Source of the DNA: Bacteroidales bacterium
Lineage (GTDB): Bacteria > Bacteroidota > Bacteroidia > Bacteroidales > UBA1715
Assembly: GCA_045599365.1 (NCBI GenBank)
Contig: JAZRVS010000129.1
Coordinates: 1,684-65,683 of the forward strand
Length of the DNA: 64,000 bases
Direction of reading: 5' to 3'
The notes below the pieces were generated by a model that saw only the letters and a list, made by a program, of their open reading frames with translations, made no database searches and was not told the DNA's origin. Positions 1,902-64,000 of this stretch are shown here, piece by piece (within the stretch, counting starts at the first letter, position 1; each line of letters opens with the position of its first letter). A program made the position numbers and the translations under genes.

Positions 1902-2146
1902 TGACTGAAAAATATATTGCATTTAAAATCATTGAAAAAGAAAAATTAAAAGACGGAGTTAAATATAGAACAATTAAAACTTCGCCTTATAAAATGATTT
2001 TATTAACTTCTATATCTTATAAATGGAGTGAACGAGGTCAATTTTTTGTTTGTGAAGACGGAAATTTTTATGAATATGAAGAGGTGAATCCAGTTAAAGA
2101 AGAAAGTGAAGATGAAATTTGGCACTTGGAGTTAATTGACAAGTGA
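1901..2146 (+). CDS. hypothetical early protein
   Basis: Co-directional ORF. Its 3' end overlaps the -35 of promoter P2. Confidence 0.55.
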   Translation: MTEKYIAFKIIEKEKLKDGVKYRTIKTSPYKMILLTSISYKWSERGQFFVCEDGNFYEYEEVNPVKEESEDEIWHLELIDK

Positions 2147-2164
2147 TACGAATTGTGCTACAAT
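2136..2164 (+). promoter_or_regulatory. Early sigma70-type promoter P2 (paralogous to P1)
   Basis: TTGACA 2136-2141, 17-nt spacer, TGcTACAAT 2156-2164. About 39 of 47 positions match the P1 block by hand alignment. Confidence 0.7.
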
Positions 2165-2194
2165 ACGAATTGTAAAAAGAAAAGGAGATTTAAA

Positions 2195-7871: not shown

Positions 7872-8068
7872 TGAATGAAATGGAAATTGAAATCGGAGAT
7901 GAGGTTCGTCTTGAAGACAGATTTTATGTCGTAAAAGACATCAAGAAAGAGGAAGTGAAAACTATCCGTAAAGGAACGATTGTTTTTACGAGATTGTATT
8001 TTGATTATGAGCACGCTCCTGTTTATTCTTATTCGGTAAAAGAGGTTAGAAAAAAGAACAATGTTTAA
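7871..8068 (+). CDS. hypothetical protein
   Basis: TAATG-coupled ORF. Confidence 0.5.
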   Translation: MNEMEIEIGDEVRLEDRFYVVKDIKKEEVKTIRKGTIVFTRLYFDYEHAPVYSYSVKEVRKKNNV

Positions 8069-8411
8069 TGAAAATGAAGCGAGAGAGTTATTTGAAAACG
8101 GATATTCATATTCTCAAATTGCTTCAAAGTTATCTTGTTCTTATTCAACAGTTTGTCATAAGTTGCAAGGGGAAACGAAAAAGCGAAGAACAATTCGCAA
8201 ATCGTGTTCTCCCTTGCACGTAAGAATTGGCTTGAATTTATCGTATTATTTAGATAGAGATGATTTAGATTTAAAAAGATTATTTAGATTGAGTGGAATA
8301 CATTGGACAATCTTATCAAGAATTTTGACAGGTTCACACGACATTAAATTGTCAGAGTTGATACGGATTGCAAAAGCATTCCGAGTTGAAGTGGAAGATT
8401 TACTAAAATGA
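8061..8411 (+). CDS. HTH DNA-binding protein (two HTH-like segments)
   Basis: YSYSQIASKLSCSYSTVCHKL, plus an XRE-like LSGIHWTILSRILTG...LSELIRIAKAFRVEVEDLL. Confidence 0.6.
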   Translation: MFNENEARELFENGYSYSQIASKLSCSYSTVCHKLQGETKKRRTIRKSCSPLHVRIGLNLSYYLDRDDLDLKRLFRLSGIHWTILSRILTGSHDIKLSELIRIAKAFRVEVEDLLK

Positions 8412-9721
8412 AGTTGAGAGATTATCAATTAAAACAACTTGCTTTTCATTTGTCGGCAGACAGAACAATCAATCGTTCTGCTCCCTCAACTGGAAAGACA
8501 GCAACAGTTTGCACATATATGAAGATTAAATACAGAAACGAAAAGAAAAAGGCAGTTTTTGTTATGCCGTCTTCAATTATGTTGAAAAACAAAGAAGAGG
8601 TTTGTAACTGGTGTGAGTATTCAGAAGATGAAGTTGCGATTTGTAACGGAACACCAGCTAAACGTCTGGCTCAATATCAAGACAAAAACATAAAAGTTTT
8701 TGAAATGACATTTGAATGTTTTTCAAAAGAATGGCATTTGTTACCAAAAGACGTTGACGTTGTTATAATTGATGAATTTCATTTAGGTTTTTCAACTCAC
8801 ACAAGCAAACGAACTCAATCTTATTATCGTTCGTCAAGACGCTTTAAATATTTTATTATGATGAGTGGTACTTTGATTGACGGAAGATACAATTCAGCTT
8901 ATCCTGCTATTTGTGTAATTGAGCCGAGATATTATTTGAATTATGAAAACTTTATGCATTATCACGCAATTTACAACACTTGGGGTCAGGTTGTCGGTTG
9001 GAGAAATCCAGACAAAATCAAAGAGATTTTAAAACGACACTCTTGCTCAATTTCCGTTGAAGAAGCGTATAAAGACAGAAAGGAAAACATAATCATTTAT
9101 GAGAAATGTCAACTTGACGATAAGCATAAGAAAGCTTATTTACAAATGGAAAAAGATGCTCTGTTGGAATTAGAAGATAAATACATTGAAGCAGATTCGG
9201 GAGGTGTGAAACAAATTCGTTGTCGTCAGATTTTATCTTGTCCAGAAGTTTTAGATTTGAAAGTGGATAAGATTGGAAAAGACGAAATGTTGAAAATTCA
9301 TTTAGAAGACGCAGTTGCTTATAAAAAACAACTTTTGATTTTTGCAATTTTTGAAGCAGAACAAAAACGAATAGCAGAAGTTTGCAGACAAAATGGTTTG
9401 AAAACAGAAATAATTAACGGCACAGTTTCTTCAAAAAGACGTGGAGAAATTGACGTAGCATTTAGAAATGGTGAAATTGACGTTGTTGTTGGTTCACCAG
9501 CAACGTGTTCAATCGGTTTCAACTGGGAACACGTTGACCAAGTGATTTTTGCGAGTTGTGATTATAAAGATTCAACTTTTGAACAAGCCATAGCTCGTGG
9601 AAATAGGGGAACTAGAAAAACCCCACTTCGTGTGTATATTCTTACTTACGACACAAAAGTTGAAAGGAGAATTATGCAAATTATTAAAAGAAAATCGGAA
9701 GAAAGTAAAAAAATCTCTTGA
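8408..9721 (+). CDS. SF2 (DEAD/SNF2-like) helicase
   Basis: Walker A APSTGKTAT, motif II IIDEFH, motif III SGT, motif VI QAIARGNRG. Confidence 0.9.
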   Translation: MKLRDYQLKQLAFHLSADRTINRSAPSTGKTATVCTYMKIKYRNEKKKAVFVMPSSIMLKNKEEVCNWCEYSEDEVAICNGTPAKRLAQYQDKNIKVFEMTFECFSKEWHLLPKDVDVVIIDEFHLGFSTHTSKRTQSYYRSSRRFKYFIMMSGTLIDGRYNSAYPAICVIEPRYYLNYENFMHYHAIYNTWGQVVGWRNPDKIKEILKRHSCSISVEEAYKDRKENIIIYEKCQLDDKHKKAYLQMEKDALLELEDKYIEADSGGVKQIRCRQILSCPEVLDLKVDKIGKDEMLKIHLEDAVAYKKQLLIFAIFEAEQKRIAEVCRQNGLKTEIINGTVSSKRRGEIDVAFRNGEIDVVVGSPATCSIGFNWEHVDQVIFASCDYKDSTFEQAIARGNRGTRKTPLRVYILTYDTKVERRIMQIIKRKSEESKKIS

Positions 9722-10618: not shown

Positions 10619-11386
10619 ATGAAAAGATTACGAATTTATGACACGAATAACTGGGCACGAATTGTTTTAGAAAAAGATATTTTTGGAAAAGGAATTAGGG
10701 CTTTATGGGAAGAAGCAATAAAAGAAGACGGAATTGATTTAAAGATATTCGCCTTTGAAGGTATGTGTGGAAACCAAGCTAGACGTGACAAATATCCAGA
10801 TTACAAACTAACAAGAAAACCACCTCAAATTGATAGCTTTTTTGATAACTTGGATTTATTCAAACAACTTTTAGAAAACGCTCCTTGTAACGTAGCAAAA
10901 TGTCATTGTGATTATTACGAAGCAGACGATGTTATTTACAGTTTGAACGAAGTGTTCAAAAACAATTACGAAGTTTCAATTATGAGTACCGACCGAGATT
11001 TAACTCAAATTGAAAATGCACATTTTCCAATGGTGCAAAATGAATTGACAAAGAGAGAGTTTGTTAGAACTTATAAAACATTAGTTGGTGATACGAGTGA
11101 TAACATTCACGGAGTAAAAGGCTTTGGAAAAGGTCAATGGGAAAAAGAGATTGATAATTGGCATTTGTTGAAGCAATATTGCGAAGGAAGTTTGTCAACA
11201 TTTGAACTTGCAAGAATGGGTGTTTCAGAAAAGACAATAAAATTGTTAAAAGAAACTAGCAGAGAAGAAGTTGATATTTTGTGGGACATTACTGGTTTGA
11301 AAGACGTTAAGTCAATTATGAAAATGTCATTTGGAAATGGAAATATTCAAAAAACAGAAGAAAAATTAAAGGAGTTATTTATATGA
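10619..11386 (+). CDS. 5'-3' exonuclease / flap endonuclease (PolI N-terminal-like, PIN-FEN)
   Basis: YEADDVIYSL, STDRDLTQI and LVGDTSDNIHGVKGFGKG (the GDxSDNIPGVxGIG motif). Start placed at ATG 10619 after AAGGAG. Confidence 0.9.
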   Translation: MKRLRIYDTNNWARIVLEKDIFGKGIRALWEEAIKEDGIDLKIFAFEGMCGNQARRDKYPDYKLTRKPPQIDSFFDNLDLFKQLLENAPCNVAKCHCDYYEADDVIYSLNEVFKNNYEVSIMSTDRDLTQIENAHFPMVQNELTKREFVRTYKTLVGDTSDNIHGVKGFGKGQWEKEIDNWHLLKQYCEGSLSTFELARMGVSEKTIKLLKETSREEVDILWDITGLKDVKSIMKMSFGNGNIQKTEEKLKELFI

Positions 11387-11892
11387 AATTAGATTTTGTT
11401 GAAGAAGAAGGAATGTCAGAAGAACTTAAAAACATTTGTAAAGTTGAAAAACGAAAATACAAATATTTAAGGTATCTTGACGAAATGGGTGGAAGAGCGA
11501 GAGTTAATGACATTGTTCTTTACATTTACAAAAAAACAGGACTTTCAGTTAATCGTCAAAGTGTTCATCAATGTTTAACAATTGCATTAGAACGTGGATT
11601 AGTTGAACGAAACGGACACGAATTTGTTTTGAAAAATTCAACAAAAGAACGAGATGATATTGAAAAAGATTTGATTTACACAGCAGAGCACTACAACAAA
11701 ACATACGAAGAAATCTTTGAGAAAATTGACGCTCTCTTTGAGTGCAAACAATATGCAAAAGCTTACGTATTATCAAAACTTCTGATTAAAAAATACAACT
11801 CACATATTGGACAAATTCTTATTTCTTATTTGGAACCAAGAGTTACTTTTAATGATTTGAATTATTTATTGGAGGAACAAACAAATGCTTAA
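11383..11892 (+). CDS. winged-helix (MarR-like) DNA-binding protein, putative
   Basis: VNDIVLYIYKKTGLSVNRQSVHQCLTIALERGLVERNG resembles a wHTH. Confidence 0.45.
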   Translation: MKLDFVEEEGMSEELKNICKVEKRKYKYLRYLDEMGGRARVNDIVLYIYKKTGLSVNRQSVHQCLTIALERGLVERNGHEFVLKNSTKERDDIEKDLIYTAEHYNKTYEEIFEKIDALFECKQYAKAYVLSKLLIKKYNSHIGQILISYLEPRVTFNDLNYLLEEQTNA

Positions 11893-62531: not shown

Positions 62532-62636
62532 GTTAAAAAAGAAAGAGAAAAGGATGAAAACATCTCGGAACTTGGTAAGTGTTAAAAAAAGAAAGAGAAA
62601 AGGATGAAAACATCTCGGAACTTGGTAAGTGTTAAA
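62532..62636 (+). repeat. tandem duplication 49 + 50 bp, plus a 6-bp third start
   Basis: The unit gttaaaaaa(a)gaaagagaaaaggatgaaaacatctcggaacttggtaagt occurs at 62532-62580 and 62581-62630. The copies differ by one A. Confidence 0.95.
62554..62607 (+). CDS. uORF1 (17 aa) created by repeat copy 1
   Basis: AAAAGG then ATG. MKTSRNLVSVKKRKRKG. Its stop TGA overlaps the ATG of uORF2 (ATGA). Confidence 0.35.
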   Translation: MKTSRNLVSVKKRKRKG

Positions 62637-63484: not shown

Positions 63485-63487
63485 GTG

Positions 63488-63595
63488 CTTGGAGCTGGTG
63501 TTGGTGGCAAGTGGTGAGTGCCCAGCTCAAAATAAGCTGCTCCAAGTAGTAAGTGCCAAGTGCCCAGCTCCAAGTTCCCATACGCTTGGAGCTGG
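63488..63595. repeat. five copies of the 11-mer CTTGGAGC(T/A)G(G/C) in alternating orientation
   Basis: Forward copies at 63488-63498 and 63585-63595. Reverse copies at 63522-63528 (partial), 63536-63546 and 63564-63574. The region is locally GC-rich. Confidence 0.85.
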
Positions 63596-63690
63596 CACAC
63601 TTGAAAATCAAAAATTGGGTCGGTTGGTGTGAGGGAGTGGGTTGGGAAGTTATCCTGTTTTTTCGGTATATTTTAGGGATGGGCTTTTTT

Positions 63691-63730
63691 TAACTAGGTG
63701 CACAACCTAGTTATTTTTTTTTATTTTTTA
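63691..63730 (+). terminator. rho-independent terminator
   Basis: TAACTAGGT-gcaca-ACCTAGTTA hairpin followed by a long T-rich tract. Confidence 0.75.
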
Positions 63731-63741
63731 TAAAAAACATC

Positions 63742-63770
63742 TTGACAATTTAAAAAAAAAGTGATATAGT
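63742..63770 (+). promoter_or_regulatory. sigma70-type promoter
   Basis: TTGACA 63742-63747, 17 nt, TGaTATAGT 63762-63770. Confidence 0.65.
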
Positions 63771-63810
63771 TAATATATCAAAAGGCAATAAAGCCTTTTG
63801 ATATATTAAC
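63769..63810. promoter_or_regulatory. 18-bp perfect palindrome (operator or leader hairpin)
   Basis: GTTAATATATCAAAAGGC-aataaa-GCCTTTTGATATATTAAC. It begins inside the -10 hexamer. Confidence 0.7.
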
Positions 63811-63837
63811 AAAAAAAAAAAAAAAAAAAAAAAAAAA
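63811..63837 (+). repeat. A27 homopolymer
   Basis: 27 consecutive A counted in the sequence, between the palindrome and the AAGGAG RBS. Confidence 0.95.
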
Positions 63838-63853
63838 CATTAAGGAGTCCAAC

Positions 63854-64000
63854 ATGACTATATACTTTATAAATAAAGAAACCATTGCAAAAATTGAAAA
63901 AACAACAAAAACCACAAGTTTTAATGCGCTTGTAACCTATGCGCTAGACTCTAAAAAAAGACTTGCTGACAACAAAGATTTTAACAACGATTTTAAAAAA
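63854..64000 (+). CDS. hypothetical protein, 3'-truncated by the window end
   Basis: AAGGAG RBS at 63842-63847, ATG at 63854. Open to the last base (MTIYFINKETIAKIEKTTKTTSFNALVTYALDSKKRLADNKDFNNDFKK...). Confidence 0.55.
   Translation, partial: MTIYFINKETIAKIEKTTKTTSFNALVTYALDSKKRLADNKDFNNDFKK

Follow-up and report, generated by a model that had tools for sequence, protein, structure and literature searches.

The element described here is a promoter and its mRNA leader, situated near the downstream end of a 64,000-nucleotide stretch of DNA (the window), which corresponds to positions 1684-65683 of a 68,118-bp contig (JAZRVS010000129.1, assembly GCA_045599365.1) carrying a phage genome. Both ends of the contig repeat the same 141 bp, an overlap which is that of a circularly closed k=141 assembly, giving a replicon of about 67,977 bp with a GC content of 33.8%. 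The minus strand codes for a GpA-type large terminase, a portal protein and tail genes, and the plus strand for a MerR-like helix-turn-helix (HTH) protein, a PrimPol/D5 primase-helicase, methyltransferases, a DEAD helicase, a 5'-3' exonuclease, an SbcC-like ATPase and a sigma-like protein. The primase shares 33-42% identity with its counterparts in Achromobacter phage JWF, Xylophilus phage Lumi, Caulobacter phage Seuss and Acinetobacter phages EAb13/TCUP2199, and the divergent arrangement of terminase and primase is the same as in those phages. Judged by this gene content, the contig is an uncultured, lytic JWF/Lumi-like siphophage of about 68 kb. Since none of the proteins that were scanned looked like a phage RNA polymerase, transcription of the early genes by the host enzyme is the natural reading, and the sigma-like protein would serve later genes.

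An earlier note on this DNA had described a good promoter that is overlapped at its -10 by a perfect palindrome and followed by a run of A and a ribosome-binding site (RBS), and all of these elements were found in place by the sequence itself, a promoter scan, RNA folding and Tandem Repeats Finder (TRF) (Table 1). The promoter, TTGACA-17-TGaTATAGT, scored 11 out of 12 in the promoter scan, with the TG of an extended -10 lying within its 17-nt spacer. The arms of the palindrome are complementary at 18 of 18 positions around an AATAAA loop, and the left one overlaps the last 2 nt of the -10 hexamer. When the RNA of 63771-63875 was folded a free energy of -23.3 kcal/mol was obtained (z = -8.8), and none of 200 shuffled sequences was as stable. 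In the assembled sequence the palindrome is followed by 27 consecutive A (TRF: period 1, 27.0 copies), which is the sole run of at least 14 A/T or at least 10 G/C in the whole 2,855,874-bp assembly, then by CATT, the Shine-Dalgarno (SD) hexamer, a 6-nt spacer and the ATG at 63854. The A/T tracts upstream of the -35 (T9AT6, then AAAAAA) are placed as an UP element would be, and the relatives described below all carry A- or T-runs at the equivalent spot before their TTGACA. T9AT6 is also complementary to A27; the two bracket the promoter, and their pairing, in read-through RNA or in extruded DNA, would enclose both the promoter and the palindrome.

Table 1. Features of the promoter-leader locus and its surroundings (window positions unless contig or L003 positions are named)
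Feature	Position	Strand	Basis or remark
Conserved non-coding block GGCACA-N-AAAAT-N-AAAAATTGGGTCGG, then G-rich stretch	63595..63650	+	aligned in 7 genomes
Intrinsic-terminator-like hairpin TAACTAGGTGCACAACCTAGTTA	63691..63713	+	terminator scan; one of seven ACTAGGT-N5-ACCTAGT copies
Upstream region of A/T tracts (T9AT6, then ATAAAAAAC), in the position of an UP element	63714..63739	+	sequence; T9AT6 at 63714-63729, AAAAAA at 63733-63738
Sigma70/sigmaA-type promoter, extended -10	63742..63770	+	promoter scan; equivalents at orthologous site in 10 relatives
-35 hexamer TTGACA	63742-63747	+	
TG of the extended -10	63762-63763	+	
-10 hexamer TATAGT	63765-63770	+	
Perfect 18-bp inverted repeat, 6-nt loop	63769..63810	+	sequence, RNA folding
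Left arm GTTAATATATCAAAAGGC	63769-63786	+	
Right arm GCCTTTTGATATATTAAC	63793-63810	+	
A27 tract, unstructured 5'-leader spacer, -43 to -17 relative to ATG	63811..63837	+	sequence, TRF
SD AAGGAG, 6 nt 5' of ATG	63842..63847	+	sequence; same AAGGAGTC in relatives L012 and L013
First early gene, 221 aa	63854..64000 in window	+	ORFan; internal (QDN)n repeat; C-terminal KKVA
Early promoters TTGACA-17-TGnTAnnnT	contig 1893, 3819, 65425 (studied locus), 66439, 66844	+	circular-genome scan
Early promoters with common GATACGAAnTGTG spacer	210-260 and 2136-2175		
ACTAGGT-N5-ACCTAGT copies	307-325, 63693-63711; L003 2698, 2859, 3087, 3275, 4254		

Relatives of the phage were found through its primase, for which there were 748 matches at E <= 1e-30, many of them on contigs of 65-76 kb. 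Ten relatives with primases 49-73% identical (the closest 73%) were compared at the orthologous site, and the layout was listed for loci L005, L006, L008, L009, L011, L012, L013, L107 and L108. All ten share the same order, which runs from a variable short-repeat array through a conserved block (CACA-N-AAAAT-N-AAAAATTGGGTCGG), A/T-runs, TTGACA-17-TGnTAnnnT, a hairpin, a spacer and an SD sequence to a gene of about 200 aa. The hairpin starts 0-6 nt after the predicted transcription start, and an A/T-rich spacer of 10-24 nt leads from it to AAAGGA or AAGGAG and the ATG. The stems are short (5-9 bp), of unrelated sequences and with loops of varying size; between L005 and L006 the stem was kept, including a G-U pair, and the loop was changed. 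In 10 of 10 genomes the minimum free energy of the leader (first 45 nt of the predicted transcript) was below the mean of the local background, with a Fisher combined p of 4e-6 that is driven by three strong cases, the studied phage among them. At the level of sequence it was thus shown that the order of the elements is conserved across the ten relatives and that the sequences of the elements are not. The comparison with related genomes, which had been put forward as a check, therefore bore out the layout and not the palindrome sequence or the long A-run: anywhere in the fetched loci of the ten relatives there was no leader A-run longer than 9 and no T-run longer than 12. An exact-pattern scan of IMG/VR for a near-identical genome gave 0 matches, and a 21-mer scan of JGI metagenomes gave 7, all of them chance matches in unrelated coding sequence.

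The open reading frame (ORF) that begins at the ATG has 221 codons and runs past the end of the window to contig position 66202. It contains a 9-bp coding repeat of 7.6 copies, and no homologues of its product were found in IMG/VR, in a search of 5.8 billion proteins or in PHROGs. Its counterparts were reached by position, via the primase relatives (loci in L005-L013, L107 and L108), and are proteins of 177-243 aa with almost no sequence similarity. Eight of ten proteins of this positional family end in KK[VIAS]A(S), and each has an internal linker made of a simple repeat (QDN, NNNG, EQ, KEESS and others). As read from these sequences, the gene behind the leader is a fast-evolving ORFan of about 200 aa across the relatives. 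A repeated TTTTTGTCTA(C/T)TTTTT motif adjoins it, lying 3' of the gene in the studied phage (L003 2599-2641) and 5' of the promoter in relatives (L005 ~11700-11730, L009 ~9070-9150 and L011 ~10680-10730); these motifs are possible iterons or protein-binding sites.

The promoter had been regarded as a strong one serving an early unit, and as a prediction of activity this is upheld by its consensus, by the restriction of such sites to the early region and by its conservation in the relatives. At the usual distance of 5-9 nt from the -10, transcription is predicted to start at about 63775-63777, which is inside the left arm of the palindrome, so that the mRNA would carry a stem of 10-12 bp and not of 18 bp. 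Thus the stable hairpin that the earlier note had placed at the 5' end of the mRNA would be correct in its placement but not in its extent. The predicted RNA, starting from A63775 or A63777, has AUAUCAAAAGGC or AUCAAAAGGC as its first nucleotides, which pair flush with GCCUUUUGAU(AU), forming a 5' stem-loop of 10-12 bp with a folding energy of -15.8 to -19.3 kcal/mol from the predicted starts. The stem would therefore begin at the 5' end of the transcript or no more than 2 nt from it. The same note had held that the hairpin is not a terminator, and rightly so, as on the plus strand the stem is followed by A27, on the minus strand T27 precedes the stem, and the terminator scan made no call. An intrinsic or bidirectional terminator was rejected, there being no U-run after the stem on either strand.

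We propose that an early promoter read by the host RNA polymerase drives the fast-evolving ORFan as a promoter and stem-loop cassette. With its 5' end buried in a stem of 10-12 bp the transcript would be shielded from 5'-end-dependent decay, because RppH needs at least 2 unpaired nt, and RNase J1 and RNase E both depend on the 5' end being accessible. In B. subtilis the requirement of RppH for at least 2 unpaired 5' nt has been established, and the 5' stem-loop of aprE together with its RBS acts as a stabiliser (PMC3997798). In RNA reading through from upstream the full 18-bp stem would be formed and might act as an attenuator or insulator; since the full stem would form only in such RNA, this matches the attenuator role of the PeSL (promoter-early stem-loop) cassettes of T4-type phages that are discussed below.

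In the leader, A27 is free of structure and of C and separates the stable stem from the RBS by about 31-39 nt, mostly A, spanning the region covered by the 30S subunit upstream of the SD. The A-run may thus hold the stable hairpin at about 31 nt from the SD and offer the 30S subunit an unstructured standby stretch at -43 to -17. It has been reported that unstructured 5' tails favour ribosome standby (PMC5934652), and that A-rich, C-poor leaders are translated efficiently, with enhancement in E. coli (PMC5389652). When the leader was given 0, 5, 10 or 27 A in silico, partition-function folding returned the same fold and nearly the same accessibility of the SD, meaning that the extra length brings no computed benefit. 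The idea that the A-run relieves masking of the SD finds no support in this folding.

The length of the tract is better accounted for if an A-rich spacer was expanded by replication slippage and tolerated since the length of the spacer is not critical; on this account it would not be a purpose-built switch. Of the properties that the earlier note had assigned to the tract, proneness to slippage agrees with its position (63811-63837) in the leader of a translated gene and with the literature on RNA polymerase slippage, in which the enzyme slips on runs of at least 9 A/T (PMC1088944). The host RNA polymerase would be expected to slip on A27 as well, so that leader length in the mRNA pool is probably heterogeneous. 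The length-variable switch, on the other hand, was not borne out: the tract lies between hairpin and SD, and a change in its length alters neither the reading frame nor the spacing of -35 and -10. The run could be neutral or mildly deleterious. Other traces of slippage lie nearby, among them a perfect tandem duplication of 50 bp (x2) at 62535-62636, between the primase stop and the methyltransferase start, which is recent, and in the same intergenic spaces of the relatives there are decamer, nonamer and heptamer arrays, (CAAAGCAAAC)n, (GGTTAGTTA)n and (CACTAGA)n.

Taken together, we think it rather probable that the locus is a promoter and stem-loop early cassette whose A-rich spacer was expanded by replication slippage. 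Several points weigh against this. The start site, the stem in the RNA and any effects on half-life or translation are predictions. A stem in the RNA does not by itself require that the palindrome extend 6-8 bp upstream of the start into the -10; we have attributed this extension, without proof, to template switching together with replication slippage, or to a role in read-through RNA. Furthermore, removing the A-run in silico barely alters the accessibility of the SD, so that the argument for a spacer rests on sterics and standby binding, and none of the ten relatives (0/10) has a long A-run, so the cassette would work without 27 A. Finally, the contig was placed in one bin with a Bacteroidales genome, and the signals of that genome are not those of the contig.

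A different view of the A-run is that it was selected as a poly(A) leader, allowing SD-independent or S1/Hfq-assisted recruitment of ribosomes during host shut-off, or acting as a slippage rheostat by which doses of the first early protein would be varied over the phage population. The tract at -43 to -17 is the very part of the leader that is contacted by the 30S platform, and A-rich leaders enhance translation in E. coli (PMC5389652). Among 2.9 million IMG/VR contigs a run of A20 or longer within 10 nt of AGGAG-N4-10-ATG was found in 15 contigs, compared with 6 for a T20 control, and the runs reach up to A88, some of them just after a hairpin or a tRNA-like 3' end. But the difference of 15 and 6 is weak, becoming about 13 and 6 once related contigs are left out (one-sided p ~0.08), and about half of the matches are at contig ends, where artefacts are common. 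Moreover, the long A-run is absent from all ten relatives, and the gene already has a consensus SD at the ideal spacing. We regard a selected leader as unlikely. These 15 contigs (loci L110-L124) carry runs of A20-A88, 8 of them lie at contig ends and several come from dataset 3300045988; in L115 a hairpin stands directly before A88, and in L120 a tRNA-like 3' end directly before A25. Late mRNAs of poxviruses have poly(A) leaders made by slippage and offer an analogue for a phage poly(A) leader. In its broadest form the idea would be that genome-encoded poly(A) leaders are a rare but recurrent phage device that gives the first early mRNA, while the host is being taken over, privileged or SD-independent loading of ribosomes or capture of Hfq/S1, lengthened by RNA-polymerase slippage and diversified in dose by replication slippage, with the ~13 independent IMG/VR cases as further members; this we hold to be improbable. 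A27 is thus either a tolerated product of slippage, in which case the length of the spacer matters little, or, if selected, a rare phage poly(A) leader and new biology.

The studied promoter is not alone. On the circular genome TTGACA-17-TGnTAnnnT occurs at five sites, all on the plus strand and in the early region only, within a stretch of about 6.5 kb of small ORFan genes that starts at the studied locus. Three of the five are directly followed by hairpins (-15.8, -18.3 and -7.1 kcal/mol for the first 50 nt), two of which belong to early promoters that lie 1-1.4 kb further in; the stems of the others differ from that of the studied promoter or are missing. Beyond the hexamers the five share little, and only those at window 210 and 2136 have the GATACGAAnTGTG spacer sequence in common. 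At the promoter at 2136 the -10 hexamer TACAAT is itself the left arm of a 6-bp palindrome, TACAAT-ACGA-ATTGTA (2159-2174), and at two other early promoters here and several in L013 the start is (A/G)TCAA(A/G) running straight into the stem. Just past the end of the window, at L003 2756-2860 (contig 66439-66543), the promoter TTGACA-17-TGcTACAAT is directly followed by a 12-bp stem (GTGTCAAGAGAG...CTCTCTTGACAC) and T8, which predicts an RNA of about 65 nt without an ORF, a candidate phage small RNA or attenuator. Rfam gave only a sub-threshold, miRNA-like match on this hairpin, and on the early region as a whole it returned sub-threshold noise only, with no known RNA family at the hairpin of the studied leader.

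A second palindrome is repeated in the same region. ACTAGGT-N5-ACCTAGT is present in 7 copies on the circular genome, all within a 4.6-kb early region where they flank the early promoters, with 2 copies in the window against 0.00 expected and one of them 31 bp upstream of the studied -35. It is often extended as AACTAGGT...ACCTAGTT and has a partly conserved spacer, T-R-Y-A-Y. In the relative L008 a different palindrome, GTTTCAC-N-GTGAAAC or GTTACATGTGAAAC, is repeated at the same kinds of position; with a spacer of one base it cannot form a hairpin in RNA, which argues for binding of a protein. ACTAGGT-N5-ACCTAGT is therefore a candidate phage-specific operator or insulator, and on its sequence and distribution a better operator candidate than the 18-bp palindrome.

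The earlier note had proposed that the 18-bp palindrome itself serves as an operator for tight repression, and in this form a dimeric phage repressor would occupy -8 to +34 and shut the early promoter. Shut-off of early promoters does occur in lytic phages that have early and late programmes, several HTH proteins are encoded here (for example at 8061-8411, with HTH_26/HTH_3), and the perfect symmetry reaches the -10 and the discriminator, beyond what the predicted RNA needs. However, at up to 3 mismatches the genome contains the 18-nt half-site nowhere else except as two 3-mismatch matches in unrelated coding regions, and 13-mer matches to it are scattered in genes, none of them at another promoter. 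The stems at the other early promoters differ or are missing, and the relatives have non-homologous hairpins with varying loops at the same spot, which is the pattern of a structure and not of a recognition sequence. In addition, a symmetric site of 42 bp is long for an HTH dimer, and the seven copies of ACTAGGT-N5-ACCTAGT flanking early promoters make a more plausible common operator. As its half-site is neither repeated at promoters nor conserved in relatives, the palindrome has little claim to this role, and repression through it has in our judgement a low probability.

The position of the locus in the genome may be understood from phage Lumi, in which a direct terminal repeat (DTR) of 2,298 bp was mapped by PhageTerm (PMC9959647). 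In the Lumi record the two ends are identical, and the inner edge of the DTR comes shortly after the primase and a single small gene and is 158 nt short of the first DTR gene, with a G-rich non-coding stretch just outside the edge. The order of terminase and then primase is the same here as in Lumi, and downstream of the primase there follow a methyltransferase, a GC-rich repeat patch (63485-63600), the conserved block (63595-63650), T-rich DNA, the studied promoter and the first early gene. From this synteny the promoter is probably the first one just inside the edge of a long DTR, and the edge, that is the physical end, would probably lie roughly 40-200 bp upstream of the promoter and not at the A-tract. 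The alignment of the conserved block in 7 genomes has invariant CACA, AAA and GGG columns, and the block is found in L107 and L108 as well; a variable short-repeat array followed by it occurs at window 63485-63650 and in L005, L006, L008, L009, L011, L013, L107 and L108. The block is probably part of the edge of the terminal repeat or a packaging or cutting signal, lying outside the transcript. The contigs of several relatives (L105, L106, L010 and L007) end 12-500 bp or a few kb past the primase, which would fit an assembly interrupted by repeats or by a coverage step close to the DTR edge.

With the locus expected by Lumi synteny within ~200 bp of this edge, it might be supposed that the palindrome, lying between a T16 tract and A27, works as DNA, being extruded as a cruciform or hairpin for replication, for packaging (as an intermediate in duplication of the DTR) or as part of a supercoil-sensitive promoter. 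An AT-rich, perfect 18-bp palindrome with a 6-nt loop can extrude, the complementary T9AT6 and A27 bracket the promoter, and the contigs of several relatives break just past the primase. Against this, relatives with stems of only 5-9 bp and without a long A-run presumably package alike, the element that is conserved throughout the family is the upstream block and not the palindrome, and comparable hairpins stand behind two further early promoters located 1-1.4 kb deeper in the early region, which makes a DNA-level element quite improbable.

That the A-run is merely an assembly or library join of two unrelated ends is very improbable indeed: homopolymers are error-prone and many long A-runs in IMG/VR sit at contig ends, but this run is internal, at 2.6 kb from the end of a contig that is closed by a 141-bp overlap, a k=141 graph cannot be bridged by a 27-mer, and in ten independently assembled relatives the counterparts of both flanks form one contiguous unit (promoter, hairpin, spacer, SD), including the same AAGGAGTC RBS. 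The suggestion in the earlier note of an artefact or genome end at the tract is accordingly to be divided, an assembly join being contradicted by the internal position and the syntenic flanks, and a physical end being probably close by, as described above. Retro-insertion of the end of a polyadenylated RNA (a hairpin with an A-tail), which the appearance of the locus and of some IMG/VR matches had suggested, was likewise set aside as unnecessary, because in every relative the promoter runs without a break into hairpin, spacer and SD.

The contig was binned in a metagenome-assembled genome (MAG) assigned to the Bacteroidales, and the rest of this bin is a Bacteroidales genome, whose rpoB has 92% identity to that of rumen MAGs. 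Between the phage contig and the other 195 contigs no DNA match was found, spacer-like or otherwise, and the phage contig has no tRNAs. An SD motif precedes 67% of the ORFs of the phage contig, compared with 4% in the rest of the bin, and the phage contig uses sigma70/sigmaA consensus promoters. Because of the lack of shared DNA and the difference in SD usage, the binning with Bacteroidales was treated as unreliable; by these sequence signals the contig is probably mis-binned, which matters for any host assignment, and the host is probably an SD-using bacterium. A lactococcal-type BppL_N baseplate domain, found in a Pfam scan for endolysin and host type, gives a weak hint at a Gram-positive host.

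In comparison with known systems, the layout is of a known kind, here in a new phage lineage and with an A-run that is very rare, and neither the operator nor the switch finds support. Clusters of early promoters in terminal repeats are found in lytic phages, as in the host-takeover module of SPO1, the pre-early region of T5 and the A1-A3 promoters of T7. The studied region resembles these in having strong host-polymerase promoters, strong RBSs and small ORFans in or at the edge of a long DTR, although here the DTR is deduced from synteny with Lumi and no homology to their early genes was found. Contingency loci likewise come to mind, as a long slippage-prone run stands in the 5' leader just behind an early promoter, next to a hairpin, and differs in length between relatives; however, it is poly-A and not poly-G/C, far longer (27), neither in an ORF nor between -35 and -10, and not placed to toggle the frame, the promoter spacer or the stem. 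As in de Smit and van Duin's standby-site model (Sterk et al. 2018, PMC5934652), a single-stranded stretch is present upstream of the RBS and next to a stable structure, but the RBS is here predicted to be largely open, so that standby binding is not needed against structure. The likeness to 5' stem-loop stabilisers (ompA of E. coli; aprE of B. subtilis, Hambraeus et al. 2002, cited in PMC3997798) lies in a stem 0-2 nt from the predicted 5' end with a strong RBS downstream, whereas start and stabilisation are here predicted and the spacer between stem and SD (about 31-39 nt) is far more homopolymeric.

The closest match is to the PeSL cassettes described in the T4-type phages RB49/phi1 (Arbiol et al. 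2010, PMC2839356; Comeau et al. 2014, PMC4122927), which bring together a strong sigma70-like promoter, AT-rich DNA upstream of it, a stem-loop that often overlaps the -10, an SD sequence and an ORFan (PMC2839356). By its sequence the studied locus has the same parts: its promoter, TTGACA-17-TGaTATAGT, is preceded by T9AT6 and A6, a stable stem-loop (-23.3 kcal/mol, z = -8.8) overlaps the -10 and stands before the SD, and the SD and the ATG of an ORFan follow. As with PeSLs there are several copies in a plastic early region, and for PeSLs too the stem-loop was proposed to attenuate upstream transcription. The two nevertheless differ in that PeSLs share about 100 bp of conserved cassette sequence, of which there is none here, and a common GGGG...CCCC stem, where the stems of the studied phage are AT-rich and differ from promoter to promoter. 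Here, moreover, a second repeated palindrome, ACTAGGT-N5-ACCTAGT, is interleaved with the cassettes, and a spacer of 27 A has not been described for PeSLs. The lineage is also unrelated, being a JWF/Lumi-like siphophage of a probably SD-using, possibly Gram-positive host. If our reading is correct, the locus is a compact natural part, in which an UP-like tract and a consensus promoter with an extended -10 are followed by a flush 5' stem, a spacer free of structure and a consensus SD, and a candidate strong expression leader. Promoter and stem-loop early cassettes would then not be limited to T4-type phages, and would organise the DTR early region of a large family of 65-80-kb siphophages which has hardly been studied and which is common in metagenomes of gut and rumen.

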